A program made the position numbers and the translations under genes. A stretch of DNA of 64,000 bases from Raja brachyura. Lineage: Eukaryota. The notes under the pieces were generated by a model. The model was given only the letters and a program-made list of their open reading frames with translations, made no database searches and had not been told where the DNA came from. Below, one piece after another: positions 40,431-63,780 of the stretch; position 1 is the stretch's first letter; every line of letters starts with the position of its first letter. Location: contig OY740806.1 in assembly GCA_963514005.1 (NCBI GenBank), positions 24,056,001 to 24,120,000 of the forward strand. The letters are read 5' to 3'.

Positions 40431-40900
40431 AGCGAGTCTCACCATCTCCTCACGGCTTCCTGCTCGGATTTGCTGCATTTTCTTCCCGGCGGAGGCGAGA
40501 TGGAGACTCCGGGTGCACGAAGCTGCCCAAAGTGCTGAGATGCTGCTTTCTCCCGGCGCTTTGCAGGCGATGTTGTGGGGGACATGGAGCCCAAGGCATT
40601 ACTGACGGTGATGGTACTCTGTCTACTGCGCTGCAGCATCGCCTTCAAACTCCTGAGCGGTGAGTTGGGGGGAAGGTGCACAACTCCCGGCACATGTAAC
40701 GCTGTGTTTCTTACAATCCTGGTTTCCGAAAAAACTTTTTATTGCTGATATTGGATCGGAGCTAAGTACATTTTCAGGCCAGAACTTGTCCGAGCTTGCA
40801 CCCACTTTTCTCTCGGCGTCGCCACAACCAATCACTAGATATTTAGCTTTTAAAAAGGAAAGGGAAAGTTCGCAGATGAACGTCTTTGGGTGATTAGAAT
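40340..40900 (+). promoter_or_regulatory. CpG-enriched promoter/first-exon region of LAYN
   Basis: Locally raised GC and CpG content around the LAYN start codon, against a CpG-poor background. Confidence 0.55.
40584..40659 (+). CDS. LAYN: Layilin exon 1 (signal peptide MEPKALLTVMVLCLLRCSIAFKLLS)
   Basis: gacATGG Kozak context; hydrophobic leader ending KLLS-G like human RLLSG; |gtgagt donor; 76 nt, phase 1. Confidence 0.85.
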
Positions 40901-42189
40901 TACCACAGAGCTTTACGGTGTTTAGCAAAACAAAAAGCGAACGCTATTGACAACTCCGCGAATTGGTGACATATTATAATTTTCGCAGTACTACTTCTGA
41001 AAACTAATATGTTTAATGTGGTTGAGCATATTGAATGTTCTGGATGACGGGGGTGGTAATTACAGAATGTAGTGAGTTCAGCTTCTGTAACATAGTCATT
41101 CTCCAGACATCTGCCGCCGGTCAGTTGGGAGCGAAAACCAGTCGATATCACTTGGTTTAACAGCAATCCGATTTAATCCTATGGATGGTGGGTGATGTCA
41201 AGACACGGCGGTGTGAAGGCAGTTTTATTGGATATTGCTATCTATCTCCCTCTCTCCCCCCATCTCCCCCCCCCCCCCCCTCTATACCTCTATCTCTCTA
41301 ACATCCATTCCTACCCGAGGCTTCCTGACAACTGTCACGAGTGAAGTGCTGCAGTTAGCAGATAAACTATACCACAGCAGAATGTATTTTACTGAGCTTT
41401 CCAAAATTAAGAAAGATTTAAACATAAGAAAAATCTGCAGATGCTGTTTTTTTACCAAAGGAAGACACAAATTGCTGGATTCACTCAGCGGGTCAGGCAG
41501 CATCTCTGTAGAAAATGGATGAAATAATTCTGGTTGGGACCCTTCTTCAGCCCACTTTTCTTTATAGGGGATAGTTGCCAGTGGGATGATATCCAGTGAG
41601 TACTGCAGTGTGTTCTGATTTGGAGTACCTGGAAATGTGGCTGTGTTTTTCTCTATTTGGATGCTGCCTGACCCCTTGAGTACGTCCAACACTTTCTGTT
41701 CTCTTACAGATTCATGGTTAATGGCAAAACGACCCAGGATGGCTTGCGGAAAAACTATTTAATGTGTGGTCAGGATTTGGAATATATTGCCAGATAATTG
41801 TGAGCACAAAGATTTCATGATAGTCCAGAAAGGAACTGAATAAATGCTTAAGGGATAAACATTGCAAGTGAAAGAGTGGGTTAGTGAAACGGATTGAATA
41901 TAACTTTGAGGAGCTGATAGACATCCTGTAATATTATAAAAATAGCAAATGCTGGTGATGCTCAGCAGTCAGGCTGCATATGTGGGAAAAGAAACATTTC
42001 AGATTGAAGACTCTTTATCAGAACTGGGAAGGAGACAAAAAAAGCTTGTTAAACAGCAGGAGGGCGAGAGCAAGGAATGGCTCCAGGGTGGCCATGGGGA
42101 TAAGATGGAAACAAGGTTATCTGATTAATGAATGAATGGGAACTGTCAGAGAGGTGAACATAGACGGCACAGTGGCCTGGTAGATCTTC

Positions 42190-42580
42190 TGGGGAGAAAG
42201 CAGGAACGGGGTATGAATTTTGGATGATCAGCCATGATCATATTGAATGTTGGTGCTGGCTCAAAGGGCCGAATGGCCTACTCCTGCACCGATATTCTAT
42301 GTTTCTACCTCACAGTGCCAGAGACTCTGGTTTAATCCTGACCTCGGGTACTATCTGTACGGTGATCTCACGTTCTCCCTGGGCTTCTTCAGGTGCTCTG
42401 GATTTATCCCACATCCTAAAGACGTGCAGCTTTGTAGGTTAATTAGCCTCTTTATATTGCCCCTCGTGTGTAGGGAGTTGATGAGGAAGTTGGATAACAT
42501 AGAATTAGTGTGAACAGATGATCGATGGTCAGCGTGGACTCGGTGGGCCAAAGGGCCTGTTTCCATGCTGTATCTTTCAA
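42190..42580 (+). mobile_element. CR1 3' end fused to a HE1-type SINE
   Basis: gatcagccatgatcatattgaat...ctatgtttcta directly followed by cctcacagtgccagagac SINE sequence. Confidence 0.65.
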
Positions 42581-45500
42581 TGGACAAACCAGGGAGCAAG
42601 ATGCTCCCCAGCAAGAAAGGCTGTGCATGTCCTTCACTCCCAGAGGAAACATAAAGGGGGGAAAAAAGCGAACAATCTGAGCAAACATCATAGAAGAACG
42701 ACTGATACATATGGAGAAATCAAGTTACCTGAAGTTGTAGACGTCAGTAATGAGTCCAGAACCCTGCCACGTGACCAGGCAGAAGATGAGGTGCTGTTGC
42801 TTGAGCTTCAATTGGGACTCATTGTAACACTGTGGGAGGCCAGAGACTGATAGATCAGAGTGGGATGGAGACCTCTTGTATGCTAGATAATTCTATTCAA
42901 CTATATGACAATCATAGACACAACTTTTGTTTCCATGAGGGTTGATTATTATGTGGTGAGCAAATTGAGGTGTTTTAAAATGACTAGAAGATTTGCAGAA
43001 GGGTCTCGACCCGTAACGTCACCTATTCCTTCGCTCCATAGATGCTGCCTCTCCCGCTGAGTTTCTCCAGCATTTTTGTCTACAGAAGATTTGACAGGGT
43101 AAATCGGTTATTGTCTTTGGTGACAAGAGTCCAAGGTGAATCAGCCTCAATCCTGATCGAGCCTGTAATGTGGTCAGAAAGCACTTCTCCATACAAAGGA
43201 ACTGGAAATTTAAAACTATATCTTCACAATACGTTGTTGAGCCTGAATGAAATATCAGGATTAAAAATGATAGTCTTTTGTTCCGCAAGGGTTGTGGATT
43301 CCTATTTATCCCTGGAACTTGATTGTTTTTGCCCCAGTTGTAATGAGAAATGGCAGATCTTTAATTGCGATCTTACAAAGTGCCATCTGGTTTAGCAATT
43401 GTGTGTTAGAGTAGTGAATCACAAATATAACTTTGGTATTAAAGATCAGTGAGAGAGAGAGACCAAGATATTACACATCCGTTCGCCTCATATATGTTGT
43501 GGAGAACTTTTTGAGTCAGAATTACTGTGATTTAGCCCATTGAGACCAATGTTATGTTCATAAGTAATAGGAGCAGTATTAGGCCATTCGGCCCATCAAG
43601 TTTACTCCGTCATTCAATCATGGCTGATCTAATTCACCCTCCTAACCCCATTCTTCTGAGTTTTTCCCATAACCCCTGACATCCATACTAATCAAGAATC
43701 TATCTATCTATGCCTTAAAAATATCCATTGATGTCCTCCACAGCCTTCTGTCACAAAGAATTCCAATTCAACTTAGGTGATGTACAATAAACATAATTGA
43801 TTTTTTTTTTTGGGCGGATATAAGTAAATAAGTAGACACAGGAAATCCAGTGGAAGGCATTTGATATGTTTCCACCCTGCAGATTGGTGAAAGTAATTAA
43901 GGTTCTTGGGAAAGGATGGAAATGAATGATTGTGATTATTATATAAGCAGTGGAAGGCAGAGTGTAGGGATAATGGGTAACTCCTCAATGTGGGAAGAAA
44001 TAAAGCACACTGCCTCACTTATGAGGAGACCTCAATTATTATATCTATTTTTGATTTGTAATATAGTAAAAAGGCAAATAGTTACATTTATTATAACACA
44101 ATGATTGGTGGCTGGGCAGAGCTGGGAACATAACATTACATGAAGACTGATCAATTAATTGCCAAAGTGGCAGATTGATGTCAATGTAGATAATGGTGAG
44201 GTAATCCATTCTGCGCAGAAGAAAAATGAGCTCAGCATTATTCAAATAGTGAAAATCGTTAATGCTGAAGATACAGTAGTTAGTTATGAATATTAATGAA
44301 CTGGATAACAATGTTGTTGACACGATCAGTAAGTTTGTAGTTGACACTAAAATGTGTTGTACAGGACAGTAAAGAATATTATGAAGAGAGTTAGATTTAG
44401 CTCTTGGGACTAATGGAATCAAGGGATATGGGGAAAAAGCAGGAACGAGGTACTGATTTTGGATGATCAGCCATGATCATATTGACTCGAAGTGCTGAAT
44501 GGCTTACTCCTGCACCTATTTTCTATGTTATCTAAGATTATAACATGATCTAGATGAACCGAGGAAGTGGGCCAAGTAATGGCAGATAGAATTTAACTTG
44601 GACAAGTGCAAGGTGTGAGGACAAGTACGACGTCTGGAATGCTTGCCTTCGTGGGTCAGGACGGTGAGTATAGGACATCATGATGAAACTGGATAAGTTG
44701 TTGGTCAGACCGCACTTGGAGTACTGTGTGCAGTTCTGGTCAGCAGCTATAGGAAGGATGTAATTAAACTTGAGGAGGTGCAAAACAAAATTTTGAGTGT
44801 GTTACCAGATCTGGAGGGTTTGAGTATGGAGAGGCTGGAAAGATGCTGTTTTTTACCTGGAGCAAAGGACATTAAGGGGTGACTCTATCCCTGATGCTGA
44901 GATGTGTGCGCCGGCAAAAGAGATTCTGTGAATTCACCTTGTCCACATAGACTGACTGTGAGCAGCGGGGGCTTGGAAATGAGATCAGTATGATCAAGGC
45001 CTCTTGTTGGGAACTCTGGAGAACACTTAGTCCAAAGAGGATGAATGATCTTGGCACAAGGTCACCGAATGAACTAATGAAGCACAAAAACGTGTGGCGA
45101 AGAATTCGTTTATTAGAATGATTATAGCACATTTATAGAAGAATAGAAAGATCTGCCACACATACCAAGTCCTGGTTAGATGACAACAGTTCTGAGCATC
45201 ACACCCGAGAAAGGTTAAGCTAGCCTTGGAATGCATGAGTAATTCCTATAATGTTCAACGTGTTCGACCATGCAGAGACTTTACATCAATTCGAATGGTG
45301 TTCCAGGGCTACGGAAAATGATTTAAGTTTTCCAAGTTAAAAAGTAATGTTTTAGGAAGTTTTATGAACTTTCTGTTCCAGTGGTGGAATCTAACAAAAG
45401 TCGAGACAACCATAAATCCAGACTTCGACCATTGATGAGTCTCCCCTTGTGTTCTTGCGTGACCTGTTACTTGCTTTGTATCACATATCCCAGTAATATG

Positions 45501-45734
45501 CAGTTATCTGTCAGCCTCTGCAGTTACCTGCCTGTCTCACACTAACCACAGTAACTATCTCACACGTCTTGGTTAATGCAGTGTCTTATCCCTGAAGGGG
45601 GCTGTTCTAAGCACCAGCAGCTTTGGGAGGTCAATGCCAGGAATTCAGTCCCAGGGGTCAAGATGTGGTGATACAAATAACTTATTAAGTGTGGTCAAGT
45701 TCATTAATTTTATTTTATTTTCTTATTCATTTAC

Positions 45735-46605
45735 AGGATATGTCACAGGAGCAGAATTAGGCTATTCGGCCCATTGAATCTACTCCATCATTCGTTCATG
45801 GTTGATCTATTTTTCCCACTCAATCCCATTTTCCTGCCATGTCCCTGTAACCTTTGATGCCCTCTCTAATCAACAACCTGTCAATCTCCACTTTAAAAAT
45901 ACCCAGTGACTTGGCCTCCACAGCCATCAGTGGCGATGAATTCCACAGATTCACCACCCTCTGGCTAAAGAAATTCCTCCTCATCTCCATACTAAAGATA
46001 TGTCTATTTACTCTGGTCTCGGATTCTCCCACCATTGGAAATATCCGCTCATTATTCAGTAGGTTTCAATGAAATTCCCGCTCATCCTTCTAAACTCCAG
46101 CGACGCAGATCAATCAAATGCTCCTCATACGTTAACCCAATCATTCCCAGGATCATTTGCGTAAACCTCTTCTGCACTCTCCAACACCAACACATCCCTC
46201 TTTACATATGGGGGCAGAACTGCTCACAGTATTCTAAACGTGGCCTGACCAGTGCCTTATAGAGTCTTAGCATTACATCCTGGCTTTTATATTCTAGTCC
46301 TCTCAAAGTGAACGGCAACATTGCATTTTCCTTCCTTACCACTGACTCCTCTGCAAATTAACCTTTGGAGAATCCTGCGTGAGCACTTTCAAGACCCTCC
46401 ACACCTCCGATTTCTGAATCTGCTCCCCATTTAGAAAATGATATATACCTTTATTCCTTCTACCAAAGTGCATGACCATACTCTGCTACACTGCATTCCA
46501 TTTGCCACTTCTTTGCCCACTCTCCCAACCTGTCAAAGTCCTTCTGCAGACTCCCTGCTTCCTCAACATTATCTGCCCCTCCACCTACCTTCGTATCATC
46601 CGCAA
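45735..46605 (-). mobile_element. CR1 LINE fragment
   Basis: Translation EMRRNFFSQRVVNLWNSSPLMAVEAKSLGIFKVEIDRLLI. Confidence 0.85.
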
Positions 46606-47669
46606 ACTTCCGAAGTGTTCCTATGTGTTTGCCACTCTTATCCTTGTTGGTAGTGCTGGCTGTGGTTTCTGGAAATCATTTTGGAATAGACTAGATAAAG
46701 AATTTTGTAGTTTGTATACACTACAGCTATGGTGCACTGGCATTGGAAGCAAAGATCCTCCAGAGTTGTCCTCGCAGTGAAAGCAATGTTTGAGGACACC
46801 TACTGTAAGTGCTTCGCTCTGTTGATGGCAGAAATGTTTACATAGATGATGATGGCAGGCAGCAGATTGATCAGCATCTGCGACTAGTTTTGAACCGCGC
46901 GCAAAAAACAGAGTAGAATGCAGAAAAATCGAGGTCACGTTGTTTGAAACTGGCCTGACCAATCCTCTGTTCCTTTTCACCTTTGGAACCGACTACCTGG
47001 AGATGCTGTGAATGTGATTCAGAAGAGCTGGGGCACAGACCATGAACCAGGTGGAGCACACAGCCAAGGTGAAGCAGAATCTGGAAATGAGGCGACAGTG
47101 TTTTCTTTGGATTTCGTGAGAGGATCTGGTCACCTGGTGGGACATGGTTTTGATGTTCCAGTGCATGCTGTGGATGTGGCCCATATCCTGCTTCTGCCCA
47201 TGGCTGTCAATATGGGCATCTTCCATTTCATTTGAACACCCATATCATGGATCATATCCACAGGTATGCCATGTCCAAATCTACAAGCATATTCAACATA
47301 GCCCTCATCACTTGTGTCTGTGTCAAGTTGTATGTAAATACTGTATACACATACTCGATGCAGGTCGAGTTTATTGTCATTTGCACAAGTACGGTGATGT
47401 ACAGGTACAATTAAATTATTGCTGCTCTAGTGTTGTGAAGGATGAGACTGGCCAAATTACTGAAGAACATTCTTTTCACTTGGACCATGACACAATCCCT
47501 CACAGAATATTTGTGCAAAACAAAAACCAACTTTGACCACATCAACCTGCCAACTGTCTGCACAGAAGGTCCTGCAGCAGAAGACAGCAGATCCTATCAC
47601 ATGGTTCTCTGAGCAAATCATCAAATCACGTGAGGAATGCAACATTGCTAAATCCTTCTAAACTCTTGC

Positions 47670-48205
47670 TTGGCTGGTGGCAAGAAGAGGCTATCCTGTC
47701 AGAGCATACTGACTAGTTGCAACACAGCCTGGTTTAGTAATTTGAATGCCCAAGAACAAAAGAGGTCACAGCAAGTGGTAGCCTGGTCCATCACGGACAT
47801 TGATCTCTCCAGTAGGGAATCTACAGAGAGCACTGCCTCCAAAAGGCAGCTAACATCATCAAAGACCCACACCTGACTACACTTTCATCTGGCTGCTACC
47901 ATTAGGGAGAAGATACTGGAGCCTGAGAACCATGACCTCCAGTTTCAAGAACTGCTCTTTCCCAATACCATCAGACTCTTGAACCCTACACAACACTAAC
48001 CAGAAACCTACCACCACAACGATCCACTATGTTTAGGTTTGTGTGACGTATATCAGTTTGTACTATTATGGTCTGCTTACCAAGCATAGGAATTGATTAT
48101 TGTATTTTTATTTGTTGTGTTGTTGCATTAAGATGCATGTAAAGCCACAACAAGTCAGAATTGTTCTGTTGCTGGTGCACATGAGAATTAAATCCTCTTG
48201 ACTCT
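47670..48205 (+). mobile_element. Rex1/Babar LINE 3' fragment
   Basis: Translation QSILTSCNTAWFSNLNAQEQKRSQQVV...KAANIIKDP is typical of the Rex1/Babar C-terminus; tcttgac-type tail. Confidence 0.7.
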
Positions 48206-48314
48206 TGAGACCCTTCAAGCACAGAGTGCCAGTCCCACTGCACACTGGAGTCAAGGTTGCTGCAGTATGCATGAGACAATTGTCCACCTCCTCGTGGACT
48301 GTTTCCCAAGAAAG

Positions 48315-48770
48315 TCATAGAGTTTTACAGCATGGAAACGGGCCCATCAGCCCAACTTGCCCACACCGACCAGTATGTCCAACCTGCACTAGTCCCACCT
48401 ACCTGTATTTGGCCAATATCCCTCTAAACCTGTCCTATTCATGTACCTGTCTAAATGTACCTGCTTCAACTCATTCCATACACCCACCACCCTTTATGTG
48501 AAAAAGTTACCCCTCGGCTTCCTAGTAAATTTTTTCCTTCCTCACCTATGTCCTATGGTTTTCGATTCCCCTACTCTGGACAAGAGACTCTGTGCATCTA
48601 CCTGATCTATTCCTCTCATAATTTTATACACCTCTAAAAGATCACACCACATCCTCCTGCGCTCCAAGGAATAGAGTCTGAGCCTGCTCAACCTCTCCTT
48701 TAAGCTCAGACCCTCAAATTCTGGCAACATCTTCGTAAATCTACTGTGTACCCTTTCCATGTTGACAATA
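48315..48770 (-). mobile_element. CR1 LINE 3' fragment
   Basis: Translation ERVHSRFTKMLPEFEGLSLKERLSRLRLYSLERRRM. Confidence 0.8.
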
Positions 48771-49021
48771 TCAAGGGAGGCTGTGCAGTTGAATGCTGGA
48801 CTCGGAGAAATATGGTTGGGACTGGACAAGATTTGGACGTGGATATTGATCAGTTATTTTGATATGGGCCTGTAAAGAGCTGTATTAAAATGTGCAGACA
48901 AACTTAAAACATCTTTGTAAATATATTTCCAGACTGGATGCCATTGCCAGGAGTTTATGAGTAAGTAACATAATGGATGCAGTGGATGAAATCGTGTCTT
49001 GTGTTTGAGGTAGATCATTTA

Positions 49022-49310
49022 CGGCGGCACGCTGACGCAGAGGGAGTTGCCACCTTACAGTGCCAGAGACCCGGGTTCAATCCTGACTATGAGTACTGTT
49101 TGCACGTTCTCCCTGTGACCGCATGGGTTTACCCTGGGTACTCCATTTCCCTCCCACACTCTAAAGATGTACAGTTAATCTTTAGGTTAATTGGCTTTGG
49201 TAAAGGTTGTAAATTGTCCCTGGTGTGCAGGATCGTGCTAGAGTGTAGGGATCGCTGGTCAGCATGAACTCAGTGGGCCGAAGGGCCTGTTTCTGCGCTG
49301 CACCTCTCTA
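49022..49310 (+). mobile_element. HE1-type SINE
   Basis: ggcggcacg...gccagagacccgggttcaatcctgac head. Confidence 0.75.
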
Positions 49311-50386
49311 AGCACCAAATTTGGGGGAATAAAGTAACAATTTCATTTGGGGAGAATAAATAAGTGAATGAAAAGCAGAGGGATTTGAGGCTTTGGAATT
49401 TCAACAGATTATATGCAGCATTTGGTATGCCATAATTAAAACTATTGGAACTCTGAAATGTTGAAGTGAAAATATCAAAATGTGCATCCGTACCAAATCA
49501 TATGGTTACAGTTAGAAGATCATATGCATTTAGGGATATCACAATATTGATTGAAAGATAATTTCAATTTATCTTTGGCCCACCGAGTCCATGCCGACCA
49601 TCGATTACCTATTCACACTAGTTCTGTTATCCTAATTTTGTATATATTCTCTACACACTGGTGACAATTTACAGAGGCCAGTTAACCTATAAATCTACCT
49701 TCGATTTAAACCAGCAATCTGCAGTTATTTCTTACACACCCTATAAACCCACACGTCTTTGGGATATGGGAGGAAACCGGAGCACCTGGAGGAAACCCAC
49801 CCGGTCGTAGGGATACGTGCAAACTCCACTCAGACAGCTCAGTGTCGGAAGGAATCAGAGGGTATTCTGCACATTCACTGCGCTACTGTGAGAAATGTAA
49901 AGCAAGATTCTGTTTTTGTTTCACTCAACGAGATTGTGGAGTTTCTTTTAGATGTGTGTACCTTTACGACAGATTGGTTAAAAATCAAATTCTCTTATGA
50001 TTTAGATGCAGAAATATGGAACTGAGAGCATGAGAATTGCACAATTCTAGACTAAAGAGACATTATTGAAGAATAGCTTGGTACGATTAGGATTCTGTTT
50101 GTGTGGAGGTGAATGCATGTTAATTCGACAACATTTTGTGTTGCAATTTCTGAGCATGTCTATCATATTTAGATCCCATCCTCTTTGAAGTAGATGAAGC
50201 TTTAATAGAATGGAGTGTGTACCTTGTGGCCCCTTGTTGGCACTGCACTTAGAATGAAAGACTTTTAAAACACTAACATTAATATTTGTGCCAAACATTA
50301 GACCATTTGCTAATGGGCAGAGCCACCAACAGGTGAGCATTGGCACTGCAATTCCTGAAGGCAACATCTATGGGAAGAGAAACAGA

Positions 50387-50680
50387 GGGCGGCACAGTGA
50401 CGCAGCGGTAGAGTTGCTGCCTTAAAGTGCCAGAGATCCTAACTATGGGTACTGTCTGTACGGAATTTATACATTCTCCCGGTGACCGCGTGGGTTTTCC
50501 CCGGGTGCACCCGTTTCCTCACACACTCCAAAGACGTACAGGTTTGTAGGTTAATTGGCTTCAGTAAAGATTGTAAACTGTCCCGAGTGTGTGTAAGATA
50601 GTGTTAGTGTATGGGGATTGCTAGTCAGTGCAGACTCAGTGGGCCGAAGGGCCTGTTTCTGTACTGTATCTCTAAACTAA
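50387..50680 (+). mobile_element. HE1-type SINE immediately preceding the inverted duplication
   Basis: gggcggcacagtgacgcagcggtagagttgctgcc head; tctaaactaa tail. Confidence 0.8.
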
Positions 50681-52184
50681 CAGCTGGGGGAAACCGATGC
50701 AGGCACAGGGGAAGAGTGAAAACTCCACACACACAGCACCCAAGGTCAGGATTGAACCCAGGTCAATGGAGCTGTGAAAGAACAGTTTCATTAGTTGCAC
50801 TGCTGTAAAATTCAGGAAAATATCTTAAAGATCTAGGATCCTTTCTGACCAATTTCACTCTTTGATGCATCTGATGAAACAGAAAGGAGGCCTGTTATAG
50901 CAAAGTTGTATTAAATGTGATGATCATAAAGAGAATGGATTAGTTGGCATGCGCAGGTTGGGCCCTGCATCCGTGCTATATGATTCAATGACTCTATTCG
51001 AAACAGAGATTAAACCTCTTTCTTCCTGCCCATCTTCTCAACTTGGAGAGGTGATGGATACACATGGAAGTATGTTCAACTAATTGATTTTGTTTAGTGA
51101 AATATTATTCTTCAGTTTAGAGCCAGCATTCGAACCCTATCTTCGCATTCGGAAGTTACTGGGTGGAGAAATAGGAAACGTCTGCTTTAATTCCTTTTCA
51201 TTTTTCAAAATAATGCACTTATTGTTAAGTTTCCGAGAAATATGTAGAAATATACTAGGCCCAGGAGCTCAGTTACTGCACATCCCCCACTACCAAAATG
51301 AATTCAGTGCCTTCCCAATCCCATGTAACTCCTGGCGAGTGCCTTCCCAATCCCATGTAACTCCTACGAGTCACTGTTTCAGGTCGAAGATTCTTTGTTT
51401 TGTGTGGGATGACCTGCAGAGTATTTTCAACATTATCTGTTTTCATTTTAGATTTCCAGCATCTGCAGATTTTGTTTTGGATTTTCAAATTTCTGAAGAC
51501 ACCAGCCTGGAATCATCTGAACTACTCGCCAGGAGTTACATGGGATTGGGAAGGCACTGAATTCATTTTGGTAGTGGGGGATGTGCAGTAACTGAGCTCC
51601 TGGGCCTAGTATATTTCTACATATTTCTCGGAAACTTAACAATAAGTGCATTATTTTGAAAAATGAAAAGGAATTAAAGCAGACGTTTCCTATTTCTCCA
51701 CCCAGTAACTTCCGAATGCGAAGATAGGGTTCGAATGCTGGCTCTAAACTGAAGAATAATATTTCACTAAACAAAATCAATTAGTTGAACATACTTCCAT
51801 GTGTATCCATCACCTCTCCAAGTTGAGAAGATGGGCAGGAAGAAAGAGGTTTAATCTCTGTTTCGAATAGAGTCATTGAATCATATAGCACGGATGCAGG
51901 GCCCAACCTGCGCATGCCAACTAATCCATTCTCTTTATGATCATCACATTTAATACAACTTTGCTATAACAGGCCTCCTTTCTGTTTCATCAGATGCATC
52001 AAAGAGTGAAATTGGTCAGAAAGGATCCTAGATCTTTAAGATATTTTCCTGAATTTTACAGCAGTGCAACTAATGAAACTGTTCTTTCACAGCTCCATTG
52101 ACCTGGGTTCAATCCTGACCTTGGGTGCTGTGTGTGTGGAGTTTTCACTCTTCCCCTGTGCCTGCATCGGTTTCCCCCAGCTGT
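50680..52184. repeat. 661-bp inverted repeat (arms 50680-51340 and 51524-52184, 183-bp spacer)
   Basis: The arms read as exact reverse complements wherever checked. The ORF track gives the same peptide from 51084(+) and 51780(-), and all symmetric coordinates sum to 102864. Confidence 0.97.
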
Positions 52185-52563
52185 GGCTGTTTTCTCCCAC
52201 CTCAAAGAAAAGCGTGTGTGTTTGATTAATTGGCCTTTATAAAATGCCCAGACATGCGGGTGAGGGGATGAATCTGGGGGGGAATCTATGGGAAAGTGGG
52301 ATCAATATTGGGTTAGTGTAAATAGGTGCTTGATATCATTGTGGACTAGGTGGGCAGAGGAGTCTATTTCTGTGCTTATACCTGTCGGTTTAAGTAGGGA
52401 TACAATTGATAATTTGTTTACGTTCAGAGAAGGTTGGTCAACACATTTTGGTTAATCGTCTTTCCGTCAGGTGCTTGGGAAATTGCAAATATGATGAAAT
52501 TGCTCTATAAATGCAAGCTGTTATTTGGCCAACTTTAACTGACTCTGTTTTTTCTCTGCGCAG

Positions 52564-52861
52564 GCCAGAGAGTGTGTCGCAGGGGAATTGAGCGACCATG
52601 TTACAAAATTGCCTACTATAAAGATGCGTCACGCAGGTTGGGGTTCAAGGAGGCGGAACATGCATGTCAAAGCGATGGCGGGGTCCTGCTCAGCATTGAG
52701 TCAGAAAATGAGCAGCAGCTCGTTGAGAAGCTGATCCAAGGCTTGTCTGCTGGTGACGGAGATTTCTGGATTGGACTCTCGCGGAGAGAGAATGGCAGCG
52801 AGAGCTCAGCAGGTTGTCCAAGCCTGTACCAGTGGCTGGATGGGAGCGATGCAAAGTTTAG
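52564..52861 (+). CDS. LAYN: Layilin exon 2 (C-type lectin domain, N-terminal half)
   Basis: gcgcag| acceptor and |gtgggc donor; 298 nt; GQRVCRRGIERPCYKIAYYKDASRRLGFKEAEHACQSDGGVLLSIESENEQ...GDFWIGL...DGSDAKFR. Confidence 0.96.
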
Positions 52862-53699: not shown

Positions 53700-53857
53700 G
53701 AACTGGTATGTGGACGAGCCATCATGTGGCAGTGAAGTGTGTGTTGTGATGTATCACCAACCCTCTGCATCTTCCGGCATGGGAGGCCCGTACTTGTATC
53801 AATGGAATGATGATCGATGCAACATGAAAAACAACTTCATCTGCAAGTATGCACCAG
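53700..53857 (+). CDS. LAYN: Layilin exon 3 (C-type lectin domain, C-terminal half)
   Basis: cttttag| acceptor and |gtaatc donor; 158 nt; RNWYVDEPSCGSEVCVVMYHQPSASSGMGGPYLYQWNDDRCNMKNNFICKYAP, nearly identical to recalled human layilin. Confidence 0.97.
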
Positions 53858-60789: not shown

Positions 60790-61285
60790 ACCATTCCACG
60801 GTGAAAACCCACCTAACGTCAGGGTGACGGACCCCTGATGTCATGGTGACACACCACCCAATGTCACAGTGACAGACCACCCAACCCGACGGTGATGGAT
60901 CCATCTAATGTCATGGTGACAGACCTCCCCCCCCACTAACCCCGTGGTGAAAGACCACCCAACCACATGGCGACAGAGCTCCCAACACCATGTGATGGAC
61001 CACCCAACGTCATGGTGATAATCCACCCGACCTTACGATGACAGAGCCCCCCCAACCCCGTGATGACAGAGCCCCCCAACCCCATGGTGGCGGAGCCCCC
61101 AACCCCACGTTGATGGATCACCCAACATCACATTGACAACCCACCCCACCCCACAGCATCAGACCACCCAACCGCACAGTGACAGCCCACCCAATGTCAC
61201 AGCAACAGACCACCCAATGTCTCGGTGACGATCCACCCAAGTCTACAGATGATGGACCCTCCAACCTAACCATGAGGGACAATCC
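60790..61285. repeat. Degenerate minisatellite (~23-bp unit, ggtgacagaccacccaacgtca-like)
   Basis: About 20 imperfect copies filling most of LAYN intron 6. Confidence 0.8.
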
Positions 61286-63230: not shown

Positions 63231-63577
63231 AGGATAAGGGCAAGACAGTGTGAAGAAAAAGCACCAGAAGAAAAAGTAAAGCAATTTTTTTTTTGAAAAA
63301 TTTAAGAAATATCTCCAATGATAATTAGAACCTGAAAGAATGGGACTCCATACAGATGTTTCAATGCCAAGTGAACGAGATATCAAATTTTGCGCAATGA
63401 ATATTAGACTGGGGTAGACAAATCCTAACTTCCTATGGCAAGTTTAATTTGTATCTATATAATCACACAGTGCTGTAAATATGAAGTGTGTAGTCTGAGA
63501 TATTATTTTTGAGCAATTTATGCTGAAATAATGCACCTCTTTAACACACACTTTTCACAATCACAATAATACTTTGG

Positions 63578-63780
63578 CAGATAAAAATGCTGGAGAAACT
63601 CAGTGGGTGAGGCAGCATCTATGGAGCAAAGGAAATAGGCAACGTTTTGGGCCAAAACCCTTCTTCAGCCCGAAATGTTGCCTATTTCCTTCGCTCCATA
63701 AATGCTGCCTCACCCGCTGAGTTTCTCCAGCATTTTTGTCTACCTTTGATTTTCCAGCGCCTGCAGTTCCTTCTTAAACA
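63578..63780. mobile_element. Fold-back pair of Penelope-derived termini
   Basis: aaaaatgctggagaaactcag...ggaaataggcaac / gttgcctatttcc...ctgagtttctccagcattttt inverted arms around acccttcttcag. Confidence 0.78.

Follow-up and report, generated by a model that had tools for sequence, protein, structure and literature searches.

Intron 1 of the layilin gene in the DNA analyzed here, a single stretch of 64,000 nucleotides (the window, to which positions refer unless a sampled locus is named), carries a perfect inverted repeat whose left arm appears to be a copy of 661 bases, inserted 158 bases from its source. Our preferred reading, to which we assign a probability of about 0.7, is a repair-mediated duplication produced in one event by fold-back synthesis at a germ-line break; the copy would likely be functionless, and the duplex that it forms in the pre-mRNA would be edited and then degraded. 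A search of the literature found no paper on this layilin-intron locus.

The inverted repeat and its host gene

Self-BLAST of the window aligned a left arm (50680 to 51340, minus strand) with a right arm (51524 to 52184, plus strand), each 661 nt long, as exact reverse complements with 0 mismatches across a 183-nt gap. Complementarity ends sharply at both margins, and the longest of the other inverted pairs in the window's listing measures 133 nt at 85% identity. The perfect 661-bp inverted duplication described in the first-pass annotation was thus confirmed. The 183-bp spacer that it reported is right in length, but the first 25 nt, positions 51341 to 51365 on the plus strand, are re-copied arm sequence that had been overlooked: they form a direct repeat of 51309 to 51333 (28 nt if the common AGT is included), and this start of the nominal spacer is therefore part of the new junction. 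The older spacer (51366 to 51523, plus strand), which is the predicted loop of the hairpin, contains a short repeat at about 51403 to 51497.

Two plus-strand elements that we take to be SINE-like flank or overlap the arms. The tail end of the first (50388 to 50680), a high-copy element identified by self-BLAST, is the landing site of the left arm; the loose ends of other copies continue the tail past 50680. The second (52064 to 52244; families D17 and D2, delimited by the coverage of sampled loci) has its first ~120 nt inside the right arm, and these were copied with it. About 19% of the arm is such repeated DNA, and only this SINE-like part has copies elsewhere. The unique portion of the arm (50780 to 51340, 561 nt) found no counterpart in the 2.70-Gb genome (G000) besides the two arms themselves, in a search that skips very common words. 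This agrees with the earlier view of the arms as local intronic DNA and not transposon terminal inverted repeats (TIRs), the unique part being single-locus and one arm ancestral host sequence. A DNA transposon or MITE with TIRs was rejected on these two grounds and because the outer ends have no target-site duplication.

The host gene is an intact layilin gene on the plus strand. Among the best 14 protein matches to exon 2, 13 are shark or ray layilin or layilin-like proteins (73 to 86% identity), and the top match, at 95%, carries no name. The ranking of these matches points to a cartilaginous fish, probably a ray or a skate, as the host. This top-match protein mapped onto the window as six plus-strand exons, from 40575 to 61778, with no internal stop; the exon for its residues 236 to 261 was not recovered in this mapping. 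Exon 1 (40584 to 40659, plus strand) encodes the ATG and signal peptide, as judged from translation, a GT donor at 40660, and tblastn of residues 1 to 29 of P0001; an additional in-frame start upstream is possible. It is followed by intron 1 (40660 to 52563, 11,904 nt, plus strand), which carries the repeat, then by exon 2 (52564 to 52861, plus strand; translation and protein matches), which encodes the first part of the C-type lectin domain, and exon 3 (53700 to 53857, plus strand; translation and protein mapping). The acceptor AG ends at 52563, so that the distance from the right arm to exon 2 is 379 nt, as previously noted. Solved-structure and atlas searches returned generic C-type lectin matches only. 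An optional 8-residue micro-exon that lies between exons 1 and 2 in mammalian and ray-finned fish layilins is present in none of the 14 top matches, and no look-alike was found among the 30 AG-24nt-GT candidates in intron 1 (40660 to 52563). A degenerate 23-nt tandem array occupies 60823 to 61251, immediately 5' of the last layilin exon.

Direction of copying, junctions, and proposed mechanism

Eight of 20 listed sequencing runs were examined as Logan contigs (X1, X2, X3, X4, X7, X8, X10, and X13). The listing included no RNA run with this locus; three runs guessed to be RNA are from other organisms and have small shares. X1 and X2 come from the same sample of organism A, and X13 from another sample of organism A; X3 represents organism B and X7 organism C, and X3, X4, X7, X8, and X10 together cover organisms B, C, and D. 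Arm depth is 1.09x that of the flanks in B (X3) and 1.17x in C (X7), as for single-copy sequence, compared with 1.93x in X1, and all five runs from relatives (X3, X7, X4, X8, and X10) contain one contig in which the right end of the spacer continues into the arm. The right arm is therefore the ancestral donor and the left arm was inserted. In organisms B, C, and D, the right arm is continuous with the spacer, and in the window it is continuous with the SINE-like element inside which it ends; no alternative donor for the left arm was found in G000, so that donor and copy lie 183 nt apart. A contig joining the SINE tail directly to the spacer, which would represent the empty site, was absent from the contig tables shown.

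At the outer junction (50679/50680), where repeat copies flood the contig tables and the position follows only from the shape of the graph, there is 1 nt of microhomology, base 50680 being common to the SINE tail and the new arm. The inner junction consists of the 25-nt templated filler, entered through a 3-nt slip at AGT. One base further is CGAGT (51367 to 51371, plus strand), a 5-nt inverted match to ACTCG at 51524 to 51528, which we propose as the fold-back primer. With the bottom strand folded as DNA, the probability of this fold-back pairing is 0.14 to 0.21; the observed end is among the 3 of 75 tested positions at which pairing reaches at least 0.15, and the 5-mer has a frequency of 0.9% in random local 11-nt windows. 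Neither a poly(A/T) tail nor a target-site duplication occurs at the junction sequences, and on these grounds retroposition of the pre-mRNA was rejected. The state of the junction before insertion can be approached through depth in X7, where the surplus over the bin 51317 to 51387 equals 18 to 21 bases and suggests that the ancestral sequence starts near 51367 to 51370; the left start of the older spacer is placed accordingly. Since the surplus is 18 to 21 bases and not 47, this indirect evidence makes the 25-nt piece look new, and it speaks against an older inverted repeat of ~31 bp, or a MITE, having stood at the ends of the spacer beforehand. By the X7 bin arithmetic, the 5-nt match may itself be ancestral.

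These junctions can be read as the trace of fold-back repair. Near 50680, where the SINE-like element has its tail, a break would have occurred, and the right-hand end would have been resected; its 3' strand would then have folded back on itself, 51367 to 51371 pairing with 51524 to 51528 across a loop of ~152 nt. The first synthesis would have aborted after about 25 to 28 nt, and re-priming at the same place through three common bases would have left the re-copy at 51341 to 51365. A second round may then have produced 661 nt; once displaced, this strand would have been attached to the left end by end joining that used 1 nt of microhomology. No contig yielded the allele as it was before the insertion, and both the ancestry of the primer and any deletion at the break are conjectural.

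The same product might have been reached by a replication template switch (four-point TSM or FoSTeS) or by strand invasion of the sister chromatid, in which synthesis would have set out from the left end, where the SINE tail lies, and copied 661 nt backwards, with a stutter on return; such a copy would also be neutral. Template switches give perfect reverse-complement copies in one step (PMC8794818), repair duplications have been ascribed to SDSA (PMC2671141), and the direction of synthesis cannot be read from the sequence alone. Nevertheless, the outer junction offers 1 nt of homology, whereas the 5 nt and the aborted re-copy at the inner one would better fit a priming site, and we regard this route as unlikely. 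Template-switch hairpins resemble the layilin-intron repeat in that one event leaves a perfect stem, but the stems described are of a few to tens of bases (PMC8794818).

Fold-back repair at a germ-line break, our preferred reading, has its closest described counterpart in the repair-mediated duplications of vertebrate genomes, of which 824 proximal cases have been reported in human, with a mean length of 162 bp, a maximum of 619 bp, and microhomology and filler at the junctions (PMC2671141). As defined there (Pace 2009, PMC2671141), these are lineage-specific germ-line copies of at least 50 bp with a donor less than 5 kb away and no poly(A), and an inverted intronic example is described. The layilin-intron copy is likewise longer than 50 bp, has its donor within 5 kb, is absent in relatives, shows microhomology and filler at its breakpoints, and was not retroposed. 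It differs in that its 661 bp exceed the human maximum of 619 bp, which counts against our reading, and in that its donor is unusually close (the mean in that study is 1.2 kb); furthermore, the cases of Pace 2009 interrupt a transposon, whereas this copy lands at a transposon tail, and the species listed there include no cartilaginous fish (PMC2671141). We conclude that it is probably a long-tail member of this known class and probably neutral, although neutrality is a matter of judgment here and the copy looks homozygous in the X1 individual.

For the route itself, the nearest parallel is the local fold-back inversion of yeast (Yu 2024, PMC11724301). In it, one side of a break is the source of an inverted copy, whose synthesis is primed at an inverted microhomology on the far side of a loop; the copy is displaced, its junction with the other end shows 0 to 5 nt of microhomology, and the inverted repeat ends up longer than before. 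The 1-nt outer microhomology falls within this range. The yeast events follow an induced break, depend on Pol delta and end-joining, and involve tracts of 2 to 150 nt, a 41-nt loop, and an imperfect 10-nt microhomology (PMC11724301), whereas the layilin-intron copy has 661 nt, a ~152-nt loop, 5 nt of matching sequence, and an extra aborted first round. The length of the tract, well above the ~150 nt seen in yeast, also counts against our reading, and because of it we say that the copy works like a fold-back inversion and is not a member of that class as defined in yeast.

Large human inverted duplications with a disomic spacer (Hermetz-type fold-back) offer a further parallel. They share with the present repeat a single-copy spacer, 2 to 8 nt of inverted microhomology, and, in some cases, junction insertions, but are of megabase scale, with spacers of 766 to 70,466 bp, a terminal deletion, and a dicentric intermediate, none of which applies here (PMC3907307).

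Any claim of rarity for the structure would be overstated, as young inverted copies of this kind, though shorter, turn up repeatedly in the genome. We sampled 176 stretches of 10 kb at round positions on 40 large contigs of G000 (1.76 Mb). No inverted repeat of at least 200 bp at 95% identity or more was found in the 176 stretches (upper bound, 2.0 per Mb), and inverted pairs of at least 300 bp at 90% or more were present in 8, nearly all of them repeat-derived. Ten shorter pairs were inspected, "local" being judged against the 1.76-Mb sample only: four look like young local inverted copies, three are older and decayed, and three are ordinary family copies. The young copies are L161:8518-9598 (140 bp, 100%, with a spacer of 801, in a TA microsatellite), L164:3231-3977 (147 bp, 99.3%; best other copy, 82 to 85%), L106:5632-6867 (121 bp, 98.3%; best other, about 80%), and L130:1427-5902 (117 bp, 97.4%; unique in the sample). 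At the inner junction of L161 there is a 9-nt re-copy of the arm end, the same signature as in the layilin-intron repeat. The older copies (L166:689-1231, L106:2827-3260, and L184:2085-4159) have decayed to 82 to 89%, and L047, L122, and L030 were dropped as local copies because other family members match equally well (96 to 100%). A candidate older analogue, L074:1516-3881 (1043 bp, 94%, spacer 286), proved to be an opposite-orientation pair of a ~1-kb high-copy element, for which all 40 scored candidates reached at least 97%. Four young copies in 1.76 Mb, a count that leaves out L051 and the spacer-less palindromic hits L123, L146, and L142, correspond to ~2.3 per Mb (Poisson interval about 0.6 to 5.8, by hand arithmetic) and hence to thousands of local inverted copies genome-wide. 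With four shorter copies of 117 to 147 bp at 97 to 100%, one of them with a junction re-copy, the layilin-intron repeat belongs to the long tail of a common class. Some two young local inverted copies per Mb in a slow-evolving genome would merit a genome-wide count. The layilin-intron repeat by itself answers no open question; it illustrates cleanly, in nature, a class of mutation that is already known, and its length is a little above that of the longest case published for human (619 bp), and a readable junction (aborted priming, re-priming, and end-joining) together with close relatives that lack the copy gives it unusual clarity.

Age of the copy and soundness of the assembly

Between organisms A and B, 15 of 1726 sites differ (0.87%), and between A and C, 44 of 1682 (2.6%). 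As the arms show no differences (0 of 661), their divergence is at most 0.45%, roughly half of what separates A from B. Position 50949 in the window is unlike that in either B or C, and both arms carry the A-specific change, so copying or homogenization took place after that change. Sharks accumulate mutations slowly, the rate in the epaulette shark being 7e-10 per base per generation (PMC10587355); by hand arithmetic with this other species' rate, 0.45% would correspond to up to about 3 million generations. The copy can be called young, as had been proposed, and lineage-specific, but "very recent" is not established, as 0 of 661 limits its age no more tightly than to roughly half of the divergence that separates it from the nearest relative.

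A wide age window of this kind, together with the gene conversion known between palindrome arms (PMC7999016), would also suit an older duplication in lineage A whose arms have been kept identical by conversion. We find this highly improbable: the copy is absent from B at 0.87% divergence, identity reaches the exact ends of the arms with no decayed margins, and older local copies in the same genome do decay (82 to 89%).

The inverted repeat is real with high probability. In X1, the arm forms one contig at a depth of 25.6, against 13.1 to 13.7 for single-copy and flank contigs; depth over the arms is thus not halved, as it would be in an artefact, but raised by the factor of 1.93 given above. 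A 155-nt contig of this run (51311 to 51465) crosses the new inner junction, including the re-copy, with no differences and at a depth of 11.3 (ratio, 0.85), and another contig carries the old inner junction from spacer to right arm. The X1 depths of arm, spacer, and reversed arm fit two copies on both chromosomes. The second, low-depth run from the same sample, X2, yielded one unbranched 834-nt contig through both arm ends at a depth of 4.14, which would suit a single copy, or else two copies that are each represented by ~2.3 molecules and have had their branches pruned; direct support for two copies comes from X1 alone, which may be the source of the assembly. Gaps in contig cover at 51341 to 51425 (X2, X4, X8, and X10), 51341 to 51387 (X3), and 50820 to 51387 (X13, depth about 3) carry no evidential weight.

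An artefact of the assembly or of a single library would explain why X2 gives one unbranched contig over both arm ends and why the second junction is seen in X1 only. Yet random chimeric molecules would not double the depth of the arm or bring both inner junctions to about flank depth, the 25-nt re-copy seems unlike the product of an assembler's fold-back error, and at ~2.3 molecules per copy contigs lose branches. Misassembly, raised earlier as a real alternative, is therefore unlikely given the doubled depth and the junction contig in X1, even though X2 does not confirm them, and we place the chance of any such artefact very low. In X13, 2 of 250 bases differ from the window over 50021 to 50270, and the allele at 50063 is common with B and C, which indicates another haplotype, with errors possible at depth 3.

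The predicted hairpin in pre-mRNA and DNA

A long double-stranded RNA hairpin in the pre-mRNA had been proposed, and folding agrees, predicting a duplex of ~660 bp. The sense-strand fold of 50685 to 52180 has a predicted energy of -1320.5 kcal/mol (no shuffle control), with every arm base paired, which follows trivially from the exact complementarity of the arms. Intron 1 contains just two further inverted pairs (126 nt at 78% and 49 nt at 82%), making this duplex by far the strongest structure of the intron. Nuclear ADAR editing is expected for a duplex of such length. Editing of the predicted duplex is accordingly plausible, and the most likely course for the ~660-bp structure would be editing by nuclear ADAR, followed by removal in splicing and breakdown along with the intron. 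As a rule, a retained intron reaches the cytosol only when splicing is disturbed (PMC8313407), so that dicing or cytosolic sensing by MDA5 or PKR is unlikely. The acceptor region lies outside the duplex, which ends 379 nt before the acceptor, and the new arm contains no match to three simple splice-site patterns and no AATAAA, though two ATTAAA motifs are present. Effects of the predicted intronic hairpin through siRNA, MDA5, or splicing thus seem unlikely.

It is against this background that a nascent functional locus has to be weighed. A single event younger than the split at 0.9% could in principle mark the birth of a vertebrate hairpin-RNA (hpRNA) gene, yielding endo-siRNAs (including some against the SINE-like family, from the outer ~110 bp) or retuning layilin splicing or output, and could have spread for that reason. 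The predicted -1320 kcal/mol duplex, the sense transcription that follows from its intronic position, and the apparent homozygosity of the copy in X1 would suit such a locus, and in flies hpRNAs of recent origin can have strong functions (PMC10317233). Like them, the layilin-intron repeat would form a long intramolecular duplex from a local inverted duplication; the Drosophila hpRNAs described are, however, mRNA-like, capped, polyadenylated, and Dicer-2 dependent, with complementary target genes (PMC10317233), whereas the duplex here is intronic and predicted from the DNA, and its unique arm portion, 50780 to 51340, has no other match in G000 that might serve as a target. The confinement of retained introns and the 379 nt between duplex and acceptor also speak against this idea, as do the inverted transposon pairs of at least 300 bp at 90% or more in 8 of 176 stretches, which make long near-duplex sequence nothing new to the genome. 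We consider a functional origin of this kind highly improbable; if it were true, the locus would be one among local inverted copies that may number in the thousands. Whatever its fate in the cell, the layilin-intron repeat lends itself, through comparison of alleles or of sister species, to testing what a vertebrate does with a new perfect intronic duplex in editing, small RNAs, and splicing.

At the DNA level, the instability expected of a near-palindrome had been overstated. In eukaryotic cells, a spacer of 52 bp was already enough to abolish the frequent stalling of forks, and in wild-type yeast a repeat with a 280-bp spacer was stable (PMC7999016); by analogy, any instability with the 183-nt spacer should be modest. 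Elsewhere in the window, at 63576 to 63744, 77-nt arms that are 91% complementary across a 15-nt gap lie in a dispersed repeat family that seemingly has built-in inverted arms.
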